Assembly (NCBI GenBank): GCA_934717855.1
Contig: CAKUZI010000004.1
Location: 43,973 to 107,972 of the forward strand
Length of the DNA stretch: 64,000 bases
Direction: 5' to 3'
DNA from: an uncultured Candidatus Melainabacteria bacterium
Lineage (GTDB): Bacteria; Cyanobacteriota; Vampirovibrionia; Gastranaerophilales; Gastranaerophilaceae
Below the pieces are notes generated by a model. The model made no database searches. It worked only from the letters and a program-made list of their open reading frames with translations, and was not told the origin of the DNA. This document shows, one piece after another, positions 8,056 through 60,849 of this stretch; the first letter of the stretch is position 1; each line of letters opens with the position of its first letter. Position numbers and translations under genes: made by a program.

Positions 8056-8699
8056 AGATAAATATTTTGATAGTTGAAGATCACGAACTTACTCGATTTG
8101 GACTAAAAACAACGTTTGAAAGTGTTGACTTTGTAGGCAATATTTACGAGGCAGATTCTGCAGAAACAGCTATCCAAGTATTTAATAATAACAATATTGA
8201 TGTCATAATTATGGATTTGGGACTGCCAAATATGAATGGAATTGAGGCAACAAAACAAATTCGTACGTCAAACAAAGATGTAAAAATTATTGTACTAACT
8301 TCTCACAACGATGAAAAAGAAGTTTTGAACAGCTTAAAAGCCGGTGCAAATGCTTATTGTTCAAAAGAAATTAATCCTCAAAGATTGATTGAAGTTGTTC
8401 GTTCTGTTGCAGACGGTGCTGCTTGGTTTGATCCTAGTATTGCACATATTGTGCTTAAAGCCAGCGCAAATTCCCCAACTATTGAAACAAGTGACAATAG
8501 AAAAGATTATGATTTGACTTCTCGTGAAGCTCAAATTTTGAAACTTATGACAGAGGGCTACAGCAATATGGAAATTGCTCAAATCCTTGTTATAAGTATA
8601 AATACTACAAAAGCCCACGTAGCAAATATTTTGCAAAAATTAGAAGTTGATGACAGACTTCAAGCTGCATTGAAAGCATTAAAGAACAAAATTGTATAA
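8052..8699 (+). CDS. response regulator, REC plus LuxR/FixJ-type HTH
   Basis: 215 aa. REC aspartate context DVIIMDLGLP. C-terminal LTSREAQILKLMTEGYSNMEIAQIL...TKAHVANILQKL. Start overlaps the TPR gene stop. Confidence 0.8.
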   Translation: MKINILIVEDHELTRFGLKTTFESVDFVGNIYEADSAETAIQVFNNNNIDVIIMDLGLPNMNGIEATKQIRTSNKDVKIIVLTSHNDEKEVLNSLKAGANAYCSKEINPQRLIEVVRSVADGAAWFDPSIAHIVLKASANSPTIETSDNRKDYDLTSREAQILKLMTEGYSNMEIAQILVISINTTKAHVANILQKLEVDDRLQAALKALKNKIV

Positions 8700-9979: not shown

Positions 9980-10564
9980 TTAGTAATTCCCGCCTAAAAT
10001 CACGCTTTGGCATTTAAAACCGATTTCAAATAAATCTCGTTTTCTTATAGCTGTAGAAATGTCCGGTTTTTTGTTATTTGAAATCAATATGATTTTTGCA
10101 ATACTGTTTGAAAAATCATATTCTATTTTAATATTTTCGATAATTCTTTCGTGTTCTTTGTTTAGCCCATCCGCAAGTTTTAATATTCCTCCAAGACGCT
10201 TAACAATTTTTCGTTCACTTTTTTCAAGATTTTTATAATATTCGTGTTCGTTTTTGTCCGGAAGACTTCCTCTATGGTATCTTGCAATGCAGGCAATAAT
10301 TTTGGTTTCTTTTTCTGTAAATCCATCTAAGCCGTTTTCTATAATCAAGTGCATAGAGTGCTTGTTATGTCCTTTTGCTTCTATAGAATAACCTATGTCA
10401 TGCAAAAGTGAGGCTGTTTTCAAAAATTCTCGTTCTTTGGCAGACATTTCAAAAAACTTTTTAGAAACTTCTTCAAAAATAAGCATTGCAACTCTTTCCA
10501 CCTCAATTGCGTGTTCGGTGTCGGTTGAATATTTATTAAGCATCTCTTTTACGGAAAATTTCAT
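9980..10564 (-). CDS. stand-alone HD-domain protein (resembles the C-terminal HD domain of Ppx/GppA)
   Basis: 194 aa. LLHDIGYSIEAKGHNKHSMHLI and IARYHRGSLP motifs. Confidence 0.55.
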   Translation of the reverse strand: MKFSVKEMLNKYSTDTEHAIEVERVAMLIFEEVSKKFFEMSAKEREFLKTASLLHDIGYSIEAKGHNKHSMHLIIENGLDGFTEKETKIIACIARYHRGSLPDKNEHEYYKNLEKSERKIVKRLGGILKLADGLNKEHERIIENIKIEYDFSNSIAKIILISNNKKPDISTAIRKRDLFEIGFKCQSVILGGNY

Positions 10565-10597
10565 AATTTCGTATTAATTTTATCAAAAAAATGGATT

Positions 10598-11290
10598 ATG
10601 TTCAATGTTTTTGTTATGATGTTTTTGGTTATGGAAAATGTAGATTTAATAGATATGGATTTTAGTATCCCATCAGATGTTTTGGATGAAATTCAGGCGA
10701 ATATTCAAGATATTATTCAAAGTTTTGATATTCCTGATGACAATAAACTTGATGTAATAAAGAAAATAAATTTTATGTATACTCAAACTAAGCATTTGTC
10801 AGAAACTGATGCTTTGACGAAGTTGTATAACAGAAGACATTTTGAAAACAATTTTGATCGTGAGTTTGCGCGTTCAAAACGTTACGGGAATTCGTTGAGT
10901 GTCGCAATTATTGATATTGACTTTTTTAAGAAAATAAACGATACATACGGACATCTTTGTGGGGATTTTATTCTGCGGGAAGTAGCATATAAAATGATTA
11001 ACAATTTTAGGCAGACTGATTTTGTTTTTCGTTATGGTGGGGAAGAGTTTGCGGTGATTTTAACGGAAACACCTTTGCCGAATGCGAAAATTCCTCTTGA
11101 AAGATTAAGAAAACAAATAGAAAATTCTGTATTTTCATTCAACGGGGAAGACATAAAAGTTACCATTAGTGTAGGAATAAGTTCAAATACGAATTGCGAA
11201 AACGCATGGGAAATGTTTGCGAATGCCGATAAGGTTTTATATGAAGCAAAAAATTCCGGACGTAACAGGGTTAAATCTGTAGAGCAATAG
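10598..11290 (+). CDS. GGDEF-domain diguanylate cyclase
   Basis: 230 aa. RYGGEEFAVIL (GGEEF active site) and DIDFFKKINDTYGH. The precise start among several N-terminal Met is uncertain. Confidence 0.8.
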   Translation: MFNVFVMMFLVMENVDLIDMDFSIPSDVLDEIQANIQDIIQSFDIPDDNKLDVIKKINFMYTQTKHLSETDALTKLYNRRHFENNFDREFARSKRYGNSLSVAIIDIDFFKKINDTYGHLCGDFILREVAYKMINNFRQTDFVFRYGGEEFAVILTETPLPNAKIPLERLRKQIENSVFSFNGEDIKVTISVGISSNTNCENAWEMFANADKVLYEAKNSGRNRVKSVEQ

Positions 11291-18674: not shown

Positions 18675-19403
18675 ATGAAAAAAGAGGTAAAAAGAGTTGT
18701 CGGGGGGGGGGGCAATCGCGTTGGTAAATTAGCCTTTACGTTGGCAGAGGTTTTGTTAACTCTTGGTATTATTGGGGTTGTGGTGGTTTTGACAATTTTT
18801 GCGCTTGTTGGAAAATATTCTGATATGCAAAAGTCAGTTGCGTTAAAGAAAGCTTATACTAATTTAAGTCAAGCAATATTGATGTCTCAGCAAGAACATG
18901 GAGAACTTGCTGATTGGGATAGAGCTCCTTATCATCGTAAAGGAATGCTTGAATGGTCTAATGAGTATATTTTTAAATATATGAAAAAAGTTACTGCTTG
19001 TGAAGGTGGAAATAGTGCTATAAAATGTCCGACTGACGCTGATAGAATTTGCAATGCAGAAAATAAAAATTGCAATTCGGTTACTCTTAGGATGGCTGTA
19101 TATGTGCTTGCAGATGGCGAGAATATATATATTTTTAGTGGTGGAAATCCTGTTGCAGGAAAAAGTGATTTTTTACATATCTTAGTTGATACAAATGGGG
19201 TTAAAAAGCCGAATGTGTTTGGGAAAGATGTGTTTGTTTTTACTCTTTGGTTGAATGATAGAGCAGGAAAGCCTTTAAAAAGTTGGGGGTGTACATCGAG
19301 CAGAGATATGGCTCTTACATGTTGTAAAAATAGCTCAGAAAAATGCGCTGGTTTGTTAGAATTGGATAACTGGGAATTTAAAAAAGATTATCCTTGGCGA
19401 TAA
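18675..19403 (+). CDS. prepilin-type N-terminal cleavage/methylation domain protein (type IV pilin-like / pseudopilin) with a G11 tract in the leader-peptide codons
   Basis: 242 aa. Leader MKKEVKRVVGGGGNRVGKLA, then FTLAEVLLTLGIIGVVVV (Glu at +5). GGAGGG RBS. Homopolymer G11 at 18702..18712 encodes GGGG. Confidence 0.7.
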   Translation: MKKEVKRVVGGGGNRVGKLAFTLAEVLLTLGIIGVVVVLTIFALVGKYSDMQKSVALKKAYTNLSQAILMSQQEHGELADWDRAPYHRKGMLEWSNEYIFKYMKKVTACEGGNSAIKCPTDADRICNAENKNCNSVTLRMAVYVLADGENIYIFSGGNPVAGKSDFLHILVDTNGVKKPNVFGKDVFVFTLWLNDRAGKPLKSWGCTSSRDMALTCCKNSSEKCAGLLELDNWEFKKDYPWR

Positions 19404-44182: not shown

Positions 44183-44509
44183 TTATTTATACTTTTTAAC
44201 AGCAATAATCAAATCTTTAATGAGATGCAGTTCCGGTATTGATGATGTTTGTATCAATTCACAAACCTCTGTTCTTAGACTATTATCATTGACAGGGGTA
44301 AGATTAAAAAAATCATTGATATCTATATCAAGAACCTGTGCAATTTTAACAAATGTTTCAAGTGACGGGAAAGAATTTCCGTTCTCAATTGTGCACATGT
44401 GACGCGGAGAAATGTCAATTTTTTCAGAAAGTTTTTCTTGTGAAATTCCTTTTTCTACGCGTATTTGCTTGATTTTTTGTCCGATAATTTCTTTGTCTAA
44501 TTTCATCAT
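44183..44509 (-). CDS. XRE-family (Cro/C1-type HTH) transcriptional regulator
   Basis: 108 aa. IGQKIKQIRVEKGISQEKLSEKIDISPRHMCTIENG. Divergent from the pseudopilin gene. Confidence 0.75.
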   Translation of the reverse strand: MMKLDKEIIGQKIKQIRVEKGISQEKLSEKIDISPRHMCTIENGNSFPSLETFVKIAQVLDIDINDFFNLTPVNDNSLRTEVCELIQTSSIPELHLIKDLIIAVKKYK

Positions 44510-44600: not shown

Positions 44601-44629
44601 AATCATGTATACAATCAAGAAAGGTGGAA

Positions 44630-45355
44630 ATGATTATGAGATTAACAAATGAGAGAGCTGGATTTACACTCGCTGAGGTTTTGATTACTTTGGGTATTAT
44701 TGGGGTAGTTGCAGCAATGACTATGCCAACATTGATGAACCAAACAAACGGTGCACAGTACAAAGCAGCTTACAAAAAAGCGTTGTCTGCAATTTCTCAA
44801 GGTGTAACTTTGAACGTTGCTCTAGATGACGCTAGTTTTGCAGATGCTGTTGCTGGTGATGCTGGTAAAACTGACAAACCAACATCAGGTGATTCTGTAG
44901 CAAGTATTTTGGGGGCAAGAATGAACGTTGTTAAAGCTGCAAGTACCGCAGCAGAGGGTGGATATTCTTCTTTCCCTGGAACTTTAGGCACTGTAACAAC
45001 ATGTAAAGAAGCAGGTAAAAAACCAGGTGATGACGGTTGTACACAACAAACCACAAATGTAGTTCCTGATACATACTTATTCTTTAATGATGGCTCAATG
45101 TTTGCCTATAAAGCAGTTGATGCTGTAGCTTGTTCTAAAGATGGTAATGTTGATGGTGGTAAAGTTTGTGTCGGTGTAATCGATGTAAACGGTGCAAAAG
45201 GTCCAAACAAAGTTGTACAATGTGATAATGGAACTGGGACTGATTCTAAACCGTGTACAGCCGGTAATCCTACAGATATATACCCTGTTGAGTTTTATGA
45301 CCAAACAATTTTGCCAGCTTCAGCTGCTGCAAGAGCTGTATTGTATGGCAAGTAG
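44630..45355 (+). CDS. prepilin-type N-terminal cleavage/methylation domain protein (pseudopilin)
   Basis: Leader MIMRLTNERAG, then FTLAEVLITLGIIGVVAAMTMPTLM. GAAAGGTGG RBS. Gly/Thr-rich, Cys-containing C-terminal domain. Confidence 0.7.
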   Translation: MIMRLTNERAGFTLAEVLITLGIIGVVAAMTMPTLMNQTNGAQYKAAYKKALSAISQGVTLNVALDDASFADAVAGDAGKTDKPTSGDSVASILGARMNVVKAASTAAEGGYSSFPGTLGTVTTCKEAGKKPGDDGCTQQTTNVVPDTYLFFNDGSMFAYKAVDAVACSKDGNVDGGKVCVGVIDVNGAKGPNKVVQCDNGTGTDSKPCTAGNPTDIYPVEFYDQTILPASAAARAVLYGK

Positions 45356-53908: not shown

Positions 53909-54781
53909 TTGGCAAGAGTTAGAACAAATACAAAATTAAAACCGTCAAAAAAAGCTGATTTGCAGGTAGTAAAACCTGTTAAAACAACTCGATACAGTGA
54001 TATAGATTTAAATAATTGGAAAGCATATGATCACGTTAAAACTGATACTTTGTGGGAATTCCCTACAAGATTAAGAGAGGGCGGTCACTCTAACGAATAC
54101 CATGGAAATTATATTCCTCAAATTGCTCAACAATTGTACGAAAGATTTACAAAGAAAAATGACGTTGTGCTTGATTTGTTCTTTGGTTCAGGAACATCAG
54201 GGATTGAAGCAATTAATATGGGCAGACGTTGTATTGGTGTTGAGCTTAAAGATGAACTTGCAGAAAGCGTTTCACAAAAATTTACTCCAAAACAACTTGT
54301 AACAGATGTTCGTATTATTTGTGCGGATTCTGCTTCTGAAGAAATGAGAGAAAAAGTTCAAGCAAGTTTAGATATTATGCGTGAAGAAAAAGCTCAATTC
54401 TTAATTCTTCATCCGCCTTATGATGATATTATCAAGTTTTCTGACAAAAAAGAAGATTTGTCTAACTGTGATACTACAGAAGAATTTTATGATTTATTCG
54501 CAAAAGTTGCAAAAAACGGTTATGATATGCTTGAAAAGGGTCGTTTTGCAGCGTTGATAATTGGCGACAGCTACAAAAATTCCGAAGTTCAACCTCTCGG
54601 TTTTGAATGTATGGCTCGTATGATGGCTTTGGGATTTAAACTAAAAGGTATTATTGTAAAAGATATTCAAGGTAATGAACGTGCTAAAGGTAAAACTGCA
54701 AACTTGTGGCGTTATAGAGCTTTAGCTGGTGGATTTTTCATATTTAAACATGAATATGTAATGATTTTTGAAAAAAAGTAA
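53909..54781 (+). CDS. SAM-dependent methyltransferase of the N6-adenine/N4-cytosine (DPPY-type) class, apparently orphan
   Basis: 290 aa. SAM motif VVLDLFFGSGTSGIEA..GRRCIGVEL. Catalytic-type motif LILHPPYDD. No restriction endonuclease or specificity gene nearby. Confidence 0.55.
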   Translation: MARVRTNTKLKPSKKADLQVVKPVKTTRYSDIDLNNWKAYDHVKTDTLWEFPTRLREGGHSNEYHGNYIPQIAQQLYERFTKKNDVVLDLFFGSGTSGIEAINMGRRCIGVELKDELAESVSQKFTPKQLVTDVRIICADSASEEMREKVQASLDIMREEKAQFLILHPPYDDIIKFSDKKEDLSNCDTTEEFYDLFAKVAKNGYDMLEKGRFAALIIGDSYKNSEVQPLGFECMARMMALGFKLKGIIVKDIQGNERAKGKTANLWRYRALAGGFFIFKHEYVMIFEKK

Positions 54782-54901: not shown

Positions 54902-57127
54902 ATGGCGACGCAAACAAAAAAATTATCAATAGCATTTTATTGGCATATGCACCAACCTGTTTATCAACTTACACCTACGGGAGATTATTTAATGCCGTGG
55001 GTCAGATTACATGCGGTGAAAGATTATCTTGATATGGTTCTTATTCTTGACAAATTCAAGAATATAAAATTGAACTTTAACCTTGTACCGGTTTTGTTGG
55101 ATGCTTTAATTGATTATGGCCAAAATGGTTTGCATGATATCCATTCAAGACTTTCTATTACAGATGTTGAAGATTTGACGGATGATGACAAAGAATTTAT
55201 TATTAACAATTTTTTCGATGCCAATTATCACTATATGATTTTGCCAAATGAAGAATATAACAGACTTTATCAAAAAATTCAATTAAGTGATACAAATGAT
55301 TTAAACATTTTTTCAAACCAAGAATATTCTGATTTGATGGCATTGTTTAACCTTGCGTGGTTTGATCCGATTTATAAAAACAAATATCCGGAATTAAAAA
55401 AACTTATCCAAAAAGGTAAAAATTATACGCTGGAAGATAGGATTAAAATAATTGATATTCAACGCGATATTATTAGAGAAATTATTCCTGCTTATAAAAA
55501 ATATATGGAAGACGGTAAAATTGAAATTACAACAAGTCCATATTATCATCCGATTTTACCGATATTGTTAGATTTTAAAAATATTAAAACAGCTCCAGAA
55601 AGTGATTTGCCTGAAGATTTAAAAATGCAAACAGATGCCAAAGAACAAACGCAAATGGCTTTAGACAGAATAGAAGAAATTTTTGGCAGACGTCCTAAGG
55701 GAATTTGGCCATCGGAACATTGTATTAATTCTAAAGTTGCAGAAATGTTGAGTGAACTTGGTGTTAAGTGGACAATTTCTGATGAGGGAGTTTTGTCAAA
55801 TTCAATTAATTTTGAATTTATAAGAGATTTTAGAGGCTATTTGGAAGATCCTTATCATCTTTTAAAAACTTATAATCACAAAAATGTTGATATCATTTTT
55901 AGAGATGCTATGCTTCCAAACCTTATAGGGTTTGAATATCCTAATCATTCGGCAGAAGGCGCTGCAAACGATTTGTATGACAGAATAAAAGTTGCTCAAA
56001 GTAAATTGGTATCCTCTCCTGATGAACATCATTTGCTGACTATTGCAATGGATGGTGAAAATTGTTGGGAAAATTACACTCAGGATGGTGATGAGTTTTT
56101 GACAAAAATTTATTCACTAATCGAAAATGATCCGACACTTGAAACTGTATTAATTAGTGATTATGTTGAAAAAGATACCTCAAAACCTTTGAATAAATTA
56201 AGTGCCGGTTCTTGGATTAATCGTAACTTTAAATTATGGATTGATGAACCGATAAAAAACTTAGCTTGGACATATTTAGAGCACGTGAGAGAAGATTTTT
56301 CTGCTTTTGTAGAAGCAAATCCGCAAAATCCTAATATTGATGCCGCAAAAAAAGAATTGTTTATCTGCGAGGGCAGTGATTGGTTCTGGTGGTATGGCGA
56401 ACCTAACGATTCAGGGCGTGATAACATTTTTGATTACATTTTTAGAGAACATTTGAAAAATATTTATTTCTATTTAGGACTTGAACCGCCAGAATATCTT
56501 GAAACTCCGCTTTTGTCAGCAATTGCAAAACCGTCAAGGTATCCAAAATGTGAGATTACTCCACAGATAGATGGAAAAGAACACAATGACGATATTTGGC
56601 AAAATGCTGGTTGTATAAAAATTCCAGATGGTCCTGTACTTAAGGAAAATAAATTTTATGACAAAATATATTTTGGATACGACAAGGACAACTTGTATTT
56701 GAGATTTTATCTGAATGAATATTTGAAAGAAACTCCTGCTTTATTAAAGCAAGCTAACCAAATGTACATTTACATGAGAAATCAGAATAAAAAACAGGCG
56801 CTTTCTCCAATAAGAATTATCCAAAAAACCGAGAGTATTTTACCAATTTCAAAAGAAAAATTTCATAATGAATTTCAAATTTCAATTTTTGGTGGTGAAA
56901 TAAATCTTGTAAGACTTGTCAAAGCTATACCGAATAACCTGTGGGTAATTACAACTTCTAAAAGTATAAAGACGGTTTATGACAAAGTTGTAGATGTAAG
57001 TATTCCGTTTGATTCAATAGAAATTGCAAGTGGTGATACTTTGGAATTTTTGTTTGTAAATGCAAATTATGGTGTAAAAGATTATTTTGTTCCGAATGAA
57101 ATGCTATTAACAATAACGAGAATGTAA
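54902..57127 (+). CDS. glycoside hydrolase family 57 protein (alpha-glucan processing)
   Basis: 741 aa. FYWHMHQPVY and WVRLHAVKDY GH57 signatures. Catalytic-region motifs DGENCWE and GSDWFWW. Confidence 0.8.
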   Translation: MATQTKKLSIAFYWHMHQPVYQLTPTGDYLMPWVRLHAVKDYLDMVLILDKFKNIKLNFNLVPVLLDALIDYGQNGLHDIHSRLSITDVEDLTDDDKEFIINNFFDANYHYMILPNEEYNRLYQKIQLSDTNDLNIFSNQEYSDLMALFNLAWFDPIYKNKYPELKKLIQKGKNYTLEDRIKIIDIQRDIIREIIPAYKKYMEDGKIEITTSPYYHPILPILLDFKNIKTAPESDLPEDLKMQTDAKEQTQMALDRIEEIFGRRPKGIWPSEHCINSKVAEMLSELGVKWTISDEGVLSNSINFEFIRDFRGYLEDPYHLLKTYNHKNVDIIFRDAMLPNLIGFEYPNHSAEGAANDLYDRIKVAQSKLVSSPDEHHLLTIAMDGENCWENYTQDGDEFLTKIYSLIENDPTLETVLISDYVEKDTSKPLNKLSAGSWINRNFKLWIDEPIKNLAWTYLEHVREDFSAFVEANPQNPNIDAAKKELFICEGSDWFWWYGEPNDSGRDNIFDYIFREHLKNIYFYLGLEPPEYLETPLLSAIAKPSRYPKCEITPQIDGKEHNDDIWQNAGCIKIPDGPVLKENKFYDKIYFGYDKDNLYLRFYLNEYLKETPALLKQANQMYIYMRNQNKKQALSPIRIIQKTESILPISKEKFHNEFQISIFGGEINLVRLVKAIPNNLWVITTSKSIKTVYDKVVDVSIPFDSIEIASGDTLEFLFVNANYGVKDYFVPNEMLLTITRM

Positions 57128-57207
57128 CAAAAACTTTACAAAATTGCAAAAACACTAAAGTTTTTATTATGTTTGACGTTAAGGAATATACAAAGGGAAA
57201 TTATATA

Positions 57208-57387
57208 TGGTTGATTTTAATTCTGACATACCTAAAGGACTTCCAAAATTAGATAAAGACTATTGGTCAAAAAGCAAAACAAATGTAGGAGACCAGTCTC
57301 AAGAACCACTTTTTGATGTAAATACAAAATTTACTCTTGAAAACGATTTGGCAAAAATTTCAGTTTTCAATGGAAATAAAAAATAAA
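57208..57387 (+). CDS. small hypothetical ORF (59 aa)
   Basis: AGGGAAAT RBS-like sequence then ATG. Read manually; it is not in the ORF track because it falls just under the length cut-off. Confidence 0.25.
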
Positions 57388-57420
57388 TTTTAAATTCCTC
57401 TCTTTTCCTCACACAATTTA

Positions 57421-57458
57421 TAAAAAAGAACCTCTCTAGTGATAAGGTTCTTTTTTTT
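57421..57458. repeat. terminator-like hairpin, copy 1 of an identical direct repeat
   Basis: AAAAAAGAACCTCTCTAGTGATAAGGTTCTTTTTTTT. Identical to 58319..58358. Confidence 0.7.
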
Positions 57459-57632
57459 GATAAAGTTAGGGTATATCGGGTAGCTGAGAAAGTGAAATGG
57501 GGCTAAAAATAGCACCATATAAACTATTTTTTTTGTAAAATTTTATGAAGTCAAAAATATGACATAGCAAAATTTTTTATTAGAAGTTTTATTATAAAAA
57601 AATAACATGTGTAACGCAAGAGAAAGAGGTTA

Positions 57633-58082
57633 ATGATGGAAATTAAAATAAACACACTTCTAGGACATAGATTATTTCATAACAGTAAAGGTGAAACATT
57701 GATTTTGCAAAAGGGACTTCGGGCTAATGATAATAGGCCAACTGTATCTTTGTTTAAGTTAGATGGAATCGATGTTATTCCGGTAGCAGAAAAAATATAT
57801 GGTGAAAATCATTCTGCAAAAACTCCAGATATCTACAAACACCATAAACTAAATGAACAAATTGTTACAAGAACAAAAAAAGGTAACAACATGATTGGAA
57901 CTTTGTATAGTTACAGAACCTTTTTTAAAGGTTCCGTTTACTTTGCGGAAACAAAAAATGGTGCAAAAATAACTTCTAGCTATGATAAAGATAAACCTAT
58001 TTCAGCATTCCAAAGTTTTTGTGAAGCTTTTGGTAATCCAGGAAAAAGGATTTATAATAGGCTTTTAAAAGGTGATAAGTAG
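57633..58082 (+). CDS. hypothetical protein
   Basis: 149 aa. GAAAGAGG RBS. Bracketed by the duplicated hairpins. Confidence 0.4.
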   Translation: MMEIKINTLLGHRLFHNSKGETLILQKGLRANDNRPTVSLFKLDGIDVIPVAEKIYGENHSAKTPDIYKHHKLNEQIVTRTKKGNNMIGTLYSYRTFFKGSVYFAETKNGAKITSSYDKDKPISAFQSFCEAFGNPGKRIYNRLLKGDK

Positions 58083-58272
58083 TAGTAAAATATTTCTCGT
58101 AATTATTAACCAAAATCAACACAGAGCAGAAAAAATACTTAAGTATTTCTCTGCTCTGTAGTTTATTGTGTGCAATTTTTGCTACAAATTTATAGAATGG
58201 AATTGATGTTTTGTAACAGACTTGGTATCTGTGCATTTATGCGTCTAAAATTTAATGTCTCAGTAACTTCCG

Positions 58273-58318
58273 GATAATTTATTTCCCAGTAGAGCCGAAA
58301 CCGCCTTCCCCGCGAGAT
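58273..58318 (-). pseudogene. decayed duplicate of the 3' end of dut
   Basis: TTATTTCCCAGTAGAGCCGAAACC is identical to the real dut terminus at 59628..59651. The next 21 nt are about 70% identical. Confidence 0.55.
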
Positions 58319-58358
58319 TTATCAAAAAAGAACCTCTCTAGTGATAAGGTTCTTTTTT
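58319..58358. repeat. terminator-like hairpin, copy 2 (identical to 57421..57458)
   Basis: AAAAAAGAACCTCTCTAGTGATAAGGTTCTTTTTTTT. Confidence 0.7.
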
Positions 58359-58404
58359 TTATAGTGATTTGGTATTGTTGGGATATGTATCTATTAGTAC
58401 TGTT

Positions 58405-58623
58405 TTAATCAAAAGTAAATAATTTATTTGGCTCGACATCTAACGCTGTAATCAGACGATATAAAGTTTTAAATGTAATATTTCTTGTACCACATTCAAT
58501 GTCACTAATATAATGAGAATCAATACCGAGTTTTTCAGCCAATTTTTCCTGAGTATAACCACGTATTAGACGGTAGTATTTCAATTTATTCCCGAATTTT
58601 GCACAAAGTTCATTGTATTCCAT
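58405..58623 (-). CDS. XRE-family HTH transcriptional regulator (small)
   Basis: 72 aa. LKYYRLIRGYTQEKLAEKLGIDSHYISDIECG. Divergent from the pseudopilin gene. Confidence 0.7.
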   Translation of the reverse strand: MEYNELCAKFGNKLKYYRLIRGYTQEKLAEKLGIDSHYISDIECGTRNITFKTLYRLITALDVEPNKLFTFD

Positions 58624-58662
58624 ATTCTAATCATATAGGATTATAATATTCAATAAATAGTA

Positions 58663-59493
58663 TTGCAAAATACAATATTGTATATTATGATATACAATAT
58701 GATAAATAAATTGATTAATAATGATTTTGTTTTGACGGAAGATATTGTACGGGGAACTTACTGCAATAATTTCCGTAAATCAGGTTTTACTTTAGCAGAG
58801 GTGTTAATTACTTTAGGTATAATAGGAGTTGTTGCTTCTTTGGTTTTACCTACGTTAATTGAAAAATTTAAGGACAAAGTTTATATTACACAAACTAAAA
58901 AGACTTATTCTACTGTACAGACAGTATTCAATCAATGGATGTATGACAAAGGTTGTCTTGATTATGCCTGCCTTTTTGAGCAATCTAAAACTCAGGCAGA
59001 ATTGTCTAGCGAATTTTTATCATATTTTAAGAGCGTAAAAACTTGTAAACTTTCTGTATCTGGTTGTTTAGCTGATAATATAAAATTACCTAAAGCAACT
59101 AATAATGGTCATGGAAAATTAGATGTAATGCATGGAAAAAATTGGTATAGTGCAATTTTAGCTGATGGTTCAGTAGTCGGAATATTCCCTTATGTTAATG
59201 GGGATGAAAATTGTGGACGAATTTTTGTTGACAGGCTAAGAGATGAAAATGGTAATTATATTTCTGATGGAAAGGGTGGGTACAAAACAAAAGAGACATA
59301 TTCAAAACAGTGTGGAGTTTTTTTGATTGATTCAAATGGTTTGAAAGGACCAAATCAGCTTGGCGCGGATGTATATACTTTTATTATTAATAATAAAAGT
59401 ATATTTAATTGGCATACAAAAATTGATACAGTATTGGTAGATGAAAAACTTGATTATATAAACTACAATCTAGATAATATAAAAGGTAATTAA
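58663..59493 (+). CDS. prepilin-type N-terminal cleavage/methylation domain protein (pseudopilin)
   Basis: ...FRKSG then FTLAEVLITLGIIGVVASLVLPTLI. The start among several upstream Met is uncertain. The 12-bp palindrome TACAATATTGTA sits at the start region. Confidence 0.65.
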   Translation: MQNTILYIMIYNMINKLINNDFVLTEDIVRGTYCNNFRKSGFTLAEVLITLGIIGVVASLVLPTLIEKFKDKVYITQTKKTYSTVQTVFNQWMYDKGCLDYACLFEQSKTQAELSSEFLSYFKSVKTCKLSVSGCLADNIKLPKATNNGHGKLDVMHGKNWYSAILADGSVVGIFPYVNGDENCGRIFVDRLRDENGNYISDGKGGYKTKETYSKQCGVFLIDSNGLKGPNQLGADVYTFIINNKSIFNWHTKIDTVLVDEKLDYINYNLDNIKGN

Positions 59494-59515
59494 TTATTAT
59501 TATAATATTGAACAG

Positions 59516-59572
59516 TTAAATTTGTTGTTTGAACAAACAACGACTATTTATTCACAGACAAATAGTCGTTGT
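59516..59572. terminator. twin hairpins between the convergent pseudopilin and dut genes
   Basis: GTTGTTTGAACAAACAAC and CGACTATTTATTCACAGACAAATAGTCG. Confidence 0.55.
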
Positions 59573-59627
59573 AATAATATTCATTTCAATTAATAACGAA
59601 ATTTTTCTTTAAAAAAGGTAGCAAAAT

Positions 59628-60065
59628 CTATTTCCCAGTAGAGCCGAAACCACCCTCTCCTCGAGATGTTTCTGAAAGCTCTACTGCAACTTTAATTTCT
59701 GCTTGTTCAACTCGAGCAATTACCATTTGTGCAATTCTTTCGTCTGGTTGAATTGTATATGCTTCATTTGAAACATTTACGATTGGCACACAAACTTCTC
59801 CACGGTAATCTTCATCAATTGTTCCGATGCAGTTGATAAGAGTAATTCCGTGTTTAATAGAAAGTCCTGAACGAGGTCTTACTTGCGCTTCATATCCGTG
59901 TTCAAGTTCAATTTTTAGCCCTGTAGGAATTAACTTTCTTTCCAAAGGTTGCAATGTAATCGGTTCAGAAATAGCTGCGCATAAATCCATTCCTGCAGCT
60001 CCCTCTGTTTTGTATTCCGGTAAAAATTTGTTGTGTGGTAACCTTTCAATTTTCAATACTGTCAT
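59628..60065 (-). CDS. dut: dUTP diphosphatase
   Basis: 145 aa. [24 protein letters not shown]-terminus [12 protein letters not shown]. Confidence 0.9.
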
Positions 60066-60078
60066 TTTTTAGCCTTTC

Positions 60079-60849
60079 TTATTTATACATTTCAGATCGT
60101 ATTTTTTTAATTTCTCCAATAGTTTCAGGATAATTTTCAGTCAAAAGTTCGCCAATTGATTTGTAAAGTTTAAGAATAGATTGCTCTATGTTTTTGTGAT
60201 TAAGATTTACCATATCGCAAGCCATTTCTTCGTTTGACAAAGCTAGGCGAGTCATATCCCTAAAACCGCTGGACGCTATTTCTAGAGCAAGCGGATTATC
60301 TTTTGCCGATAATACAAGAGCTTGTGCCAACACCATTGGCATATGTGAAATTAGTGCAACGGATTTGTCGTGTTCTTCCGCACTTGCAAAAACCGGTTTT
60401 GCCCCAACAAAATCAATGATTTCAAGCAAAGGATTAAATATTTCGTTTTCTGATTGTTTAGTTGAATAGTCATTAATTACAACCCATTTTGCACCTTTAA
60501 ACAATCCTTTAAAAGAGTTTTCAAACCCTTTATGTTCTGTACCAGCCATCGGGTGAGACGGAATAAAATTGTAAGGTCTTTGTTTTTGGCAAACAAATTC
60601 TTTTAAACTGCATACATCTGTAACTACTGTTTCCGGTTTTAAAACATTTTCAAGCTCGTCTAATACATTGAGAGTTTTGTTCATTGCAGTGCAAACAAAG
60701 ACAATATCCCTGTCTTTTAGTACATCATAAGTACTAAAAATTCTATCTCCGTTTTGAGATTGTGAAACAGCAATAACGTCGAAAGTCTTGCTCAAATCTT
60801 TGAATAGAGACCCGCCAATTAATCCTAAACCTATAATTCCAATTTTCAT
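60079..60849 (-). CDS. tyrA: prephenate dehydrogenase
   Basis: 256 aa. MKIGIIGLGLIGGSL Rossmann. HPMAG catalytic His region. Confidence 0.8.
   Translation of the reverse strand: MKIGIIGLGLIGGSLFKDLSKTFDVIAVSQSQNGDRIFSTYDVLKDRDIVFVCTAMNKTLNVLDELENVLKPETVVTDVCSLKEFVCQKQRPYNFIPSHPMAGTEHKGFENSFKGLFKGAKWVVINDYSTKQSENEIFNPLLEIIDFVGAKPVFASAEEHDKSVALISHMPMVLAQALVLSAKDNPLALEIASSGFRDMTRLALSNEEMACDMVNLNHKNIEQSILKLYKSIGELLTENYPETIGEIKKIRSEMYK

Follow-up and report, generated by a model that had tools for sequence, protein, structure and literature searches.

How the 3′ end of a housekeeping gene comes to stand a second time downstream of the intact gene is the question raised by one locus in a 64-kb stretch of DNA (the window) from an uncultured gut bacterium. 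The last codons of dut, which encodes dUTPase, and a 37-nt hairpin each occur twice at this locus, together with small accessory genes. The sequence-only reading of the window took the repeats for the footprint of successive cassette insertions next to dut, with duplication of the target or capture of a terminator. Both repeats are real, and the coordinates given for them hold to within about 5 nt. Here we compare the locus with other contigs of the same species and with related species, and describe the joints between its parts base by base.

Gene order around dut

On one side, the variable site is anchored by a core gene for a GH57 glycoside hydrolase (54902..57127, plus strand; Pfam PF03065, E = 1.6e-59), the relatives of which place the window among gut Melainabacteria of the order Gastranaerophilales, with MEL.A1 as the nearest named genome (91% protein identity). 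Downstream of GH57 lies a conserved 59-amino-acid (aa) open reading frame (ORF), here called s59 (57207..57386, plus strand), which is ancestrally convergent with dut, has a dN/dS of 0.15 and is without a family match in Pfam, NCBIfam or PADLOC; small ORFs of this type are found in most related loci. Functional dut occupies 59628..60065 on the minus strand (Pfam PF00692, E = 6.6e-30). The order GH57, small ORF (50–60 aa) and convergent dut is kept across 80 species-level Gastranaerophilales loci, and in many species only 30–100 nt separate the ends of the small ORF and dut. A check of synteny had been proposed from the sequence alone, and the three genes are indeed directly adjacent in related genomes. 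In the closest genomes with an empty site (L012, L075 and L014), about 20–30 nt lead from the dut stop codon to a hairpin, AAAAAAGAACC-loop-GGTTCTTTTTT, which is followed by an AT-rich flank of the ATTAAT or ATTGTA type.

A further variable site seems to lie on the other side of GH57. A gene for an N6/N4 DNA methyltransferase lies just upstream (53909–54781); it is missing from the sister lineage, which has a histidine kinase gene there, and MEL.A1 has an XRE/pilin-like gene pair at the same position.

The 37-nt hairpin, AAAAAAGAACCTCTCTAGTGATAAGGTTCTTTTTTTT, is present in exactly two copies in the 64 kb, at 57422..57458 and 58324..58360 (37 of 37 bases identical), where none is expected by chance; there is no third copy in the window even with three mismatches permitted. 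The second copy had been placed at 58319–58358, which is off by about 5 nt. An imperfect ATTTAT(C) lengthens the repeat leftward, and the usual flank after the T-run is ATAAATTGTG. An A-run and a T-run flank the stem, and the minimum free energy (MFE) of the fold is −12.3 kcal/mol on one strand (z = −3.8) and −13.7 kcal/mol on the other (z = −4.4). A simple terminator scan missed the hairpin because its loop is above the limit of the scanner, and flagged only a GAACC..GGTTC stem within an ORF; an Rfam scan of 56500–60500 at E ≤ 1 returned only two sub-threshold chance matches.

The position and stem of the hairpin are kept, with variable loops, in empty sites and in 21 loci of other species. 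Each of the 21 loci that have the stem motif contains exactly one copy, however large the insert, and each of 44 loci of other species has exactly one dut end, whatever the insert. Because the hairpin occupies one position in empty sites and in other species, and is foldable with A- and T-runs, we predict that it is the native bidirectional intrinsic terminator common to convergent dut and s59, and not a repeat borne by an element. Further copies had been suggested as something to look for genome-wide: the count of two in the 64 kb is confirmed, and there is no dispersal, as a search for the exact core in 185,579 species-representative genomes gave nothing and JGI metagenomes gave a single match, in the same GH57 context. 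These counts exclude a dispersed repeat of the REP or MITE-like kind.

Two alleles of a strain-variable islet

Our population series comprises the distinct contigs of this species that encode exactly the dut, XRE, 59-aa or 149-aa proteins of the window; gene orders are given here on the dut strand. Some strains carry a single cassette. In P1 (2 contigs, L002 and L115), dut is followed by a 149-aa ORF, the hairpin and s59; in P2 (4 contigs, L004, L007, L091 and L110), it is followed by a pilin-like gene, an XRE-type regulator gene, the hairpin and s59. Others carry both cassettes. The window type, found in 14 contigs and the window with an identical junction (J1) in all, runs dut, pilin-like gene, XRE gene, hairpin, dut fragment, 149-aa ORF, hairpin and s59. 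The J2 type (one contig, L003) runs dut, 149-aa ORF, hairpin, pilin-like gene, XRE gene, hairpin and s59, with no extra dut end, and the J3 type (three contigs, L104, L105 and L107) has the same order, but part of the s59 end is repeated behind its first hairpin. A single dut end is present in all four contigs with the XRE–pilin cassette alone and in all four contigs of the J2 and J3 types. In a sister lineage with the same dut protein, the site is empty (L001, L006 and L010) or holds a DUF2752–TM2 pair (L008 and L009).

At this locus the window consists of P2 followed by P1: two alternative alleles of an islet that varies between strains are fused in tandem. Window positions 57387–58318, which hold the terminator, the 149-aa gene and the dut fragment, differ from the P1-only contig L115 at one base in 932 nt (99.9% identity), and positions 58324–59680, with the terminator, XRE gene, pilin-like gene and working dut end, align to P2-only contigs without gaps at 98.2–98.3%. 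The hairpins had been seen as bracketing the 149-aa ORF. They are not the borders of a mobile 149-aa cassette: the copy at 57422..57458 belongs to the core sequence at the end of s59, as the resident terminator, and the copy at 58324..58360 is the distal end of the P2 allele and came with the XRE–pilin genes.

Within P1, a strong hairpin lies between the 149-aa ORF and the dut fragment (58121..58159; MFE −21 and −24 kcal/mol, z of about −6). It has the same place downstream of working dut in the P1-only contig L002, and is predicted to be the convergent terminator of dut and the ORFan in that allele. The spacer between the pilin-like gene and dut contains an inverted repeat, read from the sequence as ACAACGACTATTT...AAATAGTCGTTGT (59537..59572), a likely candidate for the convergent terminator inside P2.

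The dut fragment is the start of the P1 allele, severed from its gene. A 24-mer at 58279–58302, TTATTTCCCAGTAGAGCCGAAACC, matches 59628–59651 with one mismatch, where no match is expected by chance, and the similarity to the dut end extends over 53 nt (58276–58328) at 83% identity. This 24-mer core occurs at these two places only in the 64 kb, and is not the common terminator motif that the sequence-only reading had allowed for. On the minus strand, 58279..58317 encodes the same 12 residues as the C terminus of working dut and then stops. The two ends differ at four synonymous third positions and in their stop codons (TAA in the fragment, TAG in the working gene); in a simulation, all five random substitutions were silent in this stretch in 0.08% of trials (P = 0.0008). 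As the differences are only silent, divergence between the two ends took place while each still belonged to a working gene, which makes them two alleles and not an original with a degenerate copy. In P1-only L115, the functional dut end has the same sequence as the fragment, down to the TAA and the bases after it, and the fragment is invariant across all window-type contigs. Working dut ends beside the pilin cassette comprise about seven synonymous alleles; that of the window is of the P2-linked type and equals that of P2-only L007 and L110. About 21 nt of the fragment had been described as decayed; there is no decay, and the fragment reproduces base for base a living allele, namely the dut end found ahead of the 149-aa cassette in P1-only strains.

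Other small insertions and remnants occupy the same spacer elsewhere. In otherwise empty sites, MEL.A1 (L011, about 8560–8690) and L001 (10440–10590) have GC-rich inserts of about 120–150 nt (CCCTCTCCC...GGGGTGAGG type) between the dut stop and the terminator, and these inserts could represent a small repeat element. In the sister lineage (L006, L008, L009 and L010), short units (CCTTAGTG / ACTTAGTA / TAGTAAC) are repeated in tandem about 80–140 nt upstream of the terminator. In L008 and L009 of the sister lineage (10435–11068), dut overlaps a DUF2752 gene in the same orientation, downstream of which lies a TM2-domain gene, and about 60 nt of the DUF2752 start are left as a deletion scar in L006 (10436–10500). 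In several other species, two to four co-oriented small ORFs follow dut (L015, L016, L018, L019, L032, L044, L056, L068 and L073).

Genes of the two cassettes

The 149-aa ORFan of P1 (57633..58082, plus strand) has no match in Pfam, NCBIfam or PADLOC, and only 5 protein clusters among 5.8 billion represent it, all from this lineage. Its dN/dS of 0.22–0.25 indicates a real gene; an AlphaFold model from 5 sequences has a mean pLDDT of 42.8, too low for fold matches to carry meaning. Between window-type and J3-type alleles (L104, L105 and L107), its dS is 0.27–0.34, about three times the 0.06–0.11 of its neighbours, dut and the pilin-like gene. This difference implies either that the alleles of the cassette considerably predate the sequence around them or that their source lay in more distant strains. 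At 57916–57934, the ORF contains the stem of the terminator, GAACCTTTTTTAAAGGTTC, near-identical to the terminators of other species (L019 and L027: GAACCTTTTAAAAAGGTTC). Apart from this stem, the 64 kb contain just two of the GAACC..GGTTC form, those of the terminator copies; it is there by chance, or is left over from an earlier duplication of the terminator inside the ORFan.

The P2 cassette encodes a generic 72-aa helix–turn–helix regulator of the XRE type (58405..58623, minus strand; Pfam HTH_3, E = 4e-13) and, divergently, a pilin-like protein with a prepilin-type GFxxxE motif (58699..59493, plus strand, with a possible upstream TTG start at 58663; Pfam N_methyl, TIGR02532). The pilin-like protein has a dN/dS of 0.05–0.25 and belongs to a family of more than 5,700 members. 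Its nearest relatives, at about 60% identity, adjoin genes for a T2SSE ATPase and a ParA/CpaE-like protein in other species; on this basis, it is predicted to be a variant filament subunit, and probably is one. Certain strains have a cassette gene broken into two ORFs (the pilin-like gene in L096/L106 and L113, the 149-aa gene in L099 and L100); these genes are being inactivated in part of the population, as expected for dispensable islet genes.

Similar genes occur elsewhere. The window holds a second divergent XRE/pilin-like pair (44183–44509, minus strand, with 44624–45355, plus strand) and a third pilin-like gene (18675–19403, plus strand). The pilin-like genes of the window have the N-terminal GFTLAEVL(I/L)TLGIIGVV in common with the cassette gene and are 29–38% identical overall. 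Other species have XRE/pilin-like pairs at further positions (L011 4853–5400, L032, L050 and L060), and the pair may be a recurrent two-gene module.

Joints between the alleles

The three tandem types are joined at different places. J1 (58319..58323) reads, on the dut strand, ...GGTTCTTTTTT / GATAA / ATCTCGCGGGG..., and leads from the T-run (T6) of the P2 terminator to codon ~133 of P1 dut. Neither parent is colinear with its five filler bases (plus-strand TTATC), and the parents are identical at 8 of 13 positions around the joint. The two sides of J1 are colinear with different parents, as is characteristic of homology-facilitated illegitimate recombination (HFIR), considered below. The whole junction, including the bases missing from both parents, is identical in 14 other contigs from different samples and assemblers.

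J2 reads ...GGTTCTTTT / GAATATTATTAC... on the dut strand. Here the P1 terminator, which keeps only four bases of its T-run, meets the spacer that follows dut in P2 at position +67, with no dut copy. The sequence-only reading had named, as an observation that would refute it, the same arrangement without duplication in related genomes; the J2-type contig carries both cassettes and no duplicated dut end. J3, ...TTTTGTATTTA / ACTGTTCAAT... on the dut strand, leads from the terminator and about 105 nt further into the s59 end to P2 spacer position ~+137. Relative to the dut stop, the breakpoints in the partner are thus −45, +67 and +137. The duplicated sequence is the dut tail plus terminator at J1, the terminator alone at J2, and the terminator plus s59 tail at J3. 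Microhomology is clear at J3 only (5 nt, ATTTA); J1 has the imperfect patch and its filler, and J2 at most 1–2 nt. Three independent events, with three different breakpoints in each partner, are the behaviour of illegitimate recombination and not of a site-specific enzyme. The concatenation, the identities of the alleles and the differences between the joints are direct observations.

Alternative explanations

A duplicated gene 3′ end, an intact gene and silent-only differences are the classic signature of icd-type integration in E. coli, in which the 3′ end of a housekeeping gene is likewise doubled, the gene is intact and the copies differ only silently. The attachment site of phage 21 and e14 lies within icd (PMC12803456). 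The XRE and pilin-like genes could accordingly be read as a small integrative element with an att site in the 3′ end of dut, which brings a replacement dut end, and the fragment does keep the gene end in frame with silent changes only. We nevertheless consider site-specific integration very unlikely. No integrase, resolvase or transposase was found in the 1.3-kb segment, or among the Pfam families of genes within 10 kb in the window and ten related loci; those genes include prephenate dehydrogenase, nitroreductase, cupin, NrdD/NrdG, FtsH, a DNA methyltransferase, MutL, an RND efflux pump, EF-G and ribosomal proteins. Unlike the icd system, the locus lacks a fixed att core and phage genes. Flanking att-core repeats are not a constant feature either, since P2-only contigs contain just one dut end; the second copy is absent when the cassette stands alone, and what is duplicated is the end of the adjacent allele. 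The far end of the supposed element is the chromosome’s own terminator with its ATAAAT flank, the same two cassettes are joined at other positions in J2 and J3, and the exact XRE protein occurs at this locus only.

Very little credence is due to accretion directed by the hairpin, in which an unlinked recombination system would recognize the terminator and add cassettes beside it, in the manner of attC with no adjacent integrase. Each cassette ends in the same hairpin, and J1 and J2 fall within 4–13 nt of its T-run. However, J3 lies about 105 nt past the hairpin, the breakpoints in the joined partner range from −45 through +67 to +137 from the dut stop, and viable joints are in any case limited to short intervals near the hairpin. 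The hairpin is also present in empty sites as the predicted native terminator; elsewhere it has no match in the 185,579 species genomes and one JGI match in the same context, and other species have a single copy with inserts of any size. A wider version makes the dut–terminator spacer a preferred landing pad across Gastranaerophilales, where some unlinked mechanism at the hairpin (stalled replication or transcription, or a trans-acting nuclease or recombinase) builds integron-like arrays with no local integrase; we regard it as highly improbable.

Integron cassette arrays resemble the locus in that small cassettes form an array, each followed by the same hairpin-forming repeat. They differ in having IntI and attI and a GTTRRRY core, none of which is found here, where the hairpin is a conserved terminator of empty sites that is unique to this locus, and where the cassettes have their own promoters, opposite orientations and joints that are not at a fixed base. 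An integron array is excluded by the missing integrase, the joints at three positions and the residence of the hairpin in empty sites.

Still harder to sustain is local duplication followed by decay, or target duplication in the style of a transposon, by which the dut tail and terminator would have been copied within one genome and the copy would then have drifted. The inserted DNA is flanked by direct repeats, as such duplication would leave it. Drift is contradicted by the wholly silent differences (P = 0.0008), by the identity of the fragment to a living allele in another strain, and by the flanking 890 nt, which are one base off L115 and hence leave almost no time for drift. Against transposition, there are no terminal inverted repeats among the repeats found and no transposase, and the repeat measures 39–45 nt and comes from a different allele; known target-site duplications are far shorter than 45 nt. 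The insertions next to dut that were first proposed are real to the extent that two cassettes are stacked between dut and GH57, but target-site duplication by a mobile element did not place them there: a transposase or integrase is missing, contigs with XRE–pilin alone have no second dut end, and two other tandem types are joined elsewhere.

Least probable of all is an assembly chimera of two co-resident strains through their common hairpin: all data are metagenome assemblies, and P1 and P2 do have the hairpin and dut in common, but J1 contains bases of neither parent and is identical in the window and 14 other contigs (MEGAHIT, SPAdes, Logan and MAGs), and the arrangement is therefore not an assembly artefact.

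Origin of the tandem

We consider it likely, and hold this with good confidence, that illegitimate, microhomology-type joining of the two alleles made the tandem; the joined DNA probably came by uptake from another strain. In the ancestral state, dut and the small ORF converge on one bidirectional terminator with a spacer of only about 30 nt, and the P1 and P2 cassettes are alternative occupants of that spacer in different strains. DNA of a strain with the other allele would then have entered the cell. One end of it would have recombined homologously, in dut or in GH57/s59, and the other end would have joined illegitimately at microhomology, with HFIR as the most likely route. For the window, a P2 segment from inside dut to just past the terminator would have been joined to a P1 chromosome at dut codon ~133, with J1 placed within the patch of 8/13 similarity and furnished with five filler bases. 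The product is a complete dut with a P2-type end, an orphan P1 dut tail (45 nt) and two terminator copies. Capture of the terminator, one of the two options of the original interpretation, survives in this scheme, as the second hairpin is the local terminator in a further copy that travelled with the joined segment. Because the P2 segment ends in the chromosome’s own terminator and ATAAAT flank and starts inside dut, the ‘element’ is just a chromosomal allele.

The tandem could shed either cassette through its direct repeats (37 nt or 39–45 nt). Some single-cassette strains may therefore be secondary, which leaves the reading of the junctions unaffected. P2-only contigs could in principle derive from the window type by deletion between the hairpins, and L115 by deletion between the dut ends.

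HFIR arises during natural transformation and depends on RecA. In transformable Streptococcus pneumoniae, Acinetobacter baylyi and Pseudomonas stutzeri, one end of the incoming DNA is anchored by homology and the far end joins with short or no homology; insertions are typically about 1 kb in length, most junctions have 3–10 bp of microhomology, and insertion variants are found between conserved genes (PMC3240628). The additions described here, of 0.9–1.3 kb with irregular joints, resemble these events. They differ in that the ‘foreign’ DNA is the other allele of the same locus and that the product, instead of an insertion with deletion, is a tandem that contains short repeated stretches (of the dut tail, the terminator or the s59 tail). 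Type IV pilus genes have been reported for Gastranaerophilales (PMC5877343). As we found no report of competence or natural transformation in Melainabacteria in the literature, the route of DNA entry is one that we infer, along with the side of the homologous anchor (dut or GH57/s59). Unequal exchange between chromosome copies, conjugative DNA or phage-borne DNA would give the same products.

The closest parallel is found in strain-variable genomic islets between conserved convergent genes, at which small accessory genes are swapped at one site between core flanks, recombination in the flanks exchanges the genes, and some genes are broken in some strains. The locus does not differ from these in substance; what is particular to it is the uncultured lineage and the base-resolved joints. 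We conclude that the locus represents ordinary strain-level genome plasticity of a known kind, and not a new mobile element.

Implications

The locus provides a clean, base-resolved natural case, from an uncultured gut lineage, of accessory genes piling up at one intergenic hotspot without mobile-element machinery. For genome scans, it shows that a second gene tail with silent-only differences does not, taken alone, establish an integrase att site; it can be the leading edge of a neighbouring allele. At least three times, DNA from strains that differ in their allele has come together in a single cell, and such repeated encounters constitute indirect evidence for gene exchange among gut Melainabacteria.
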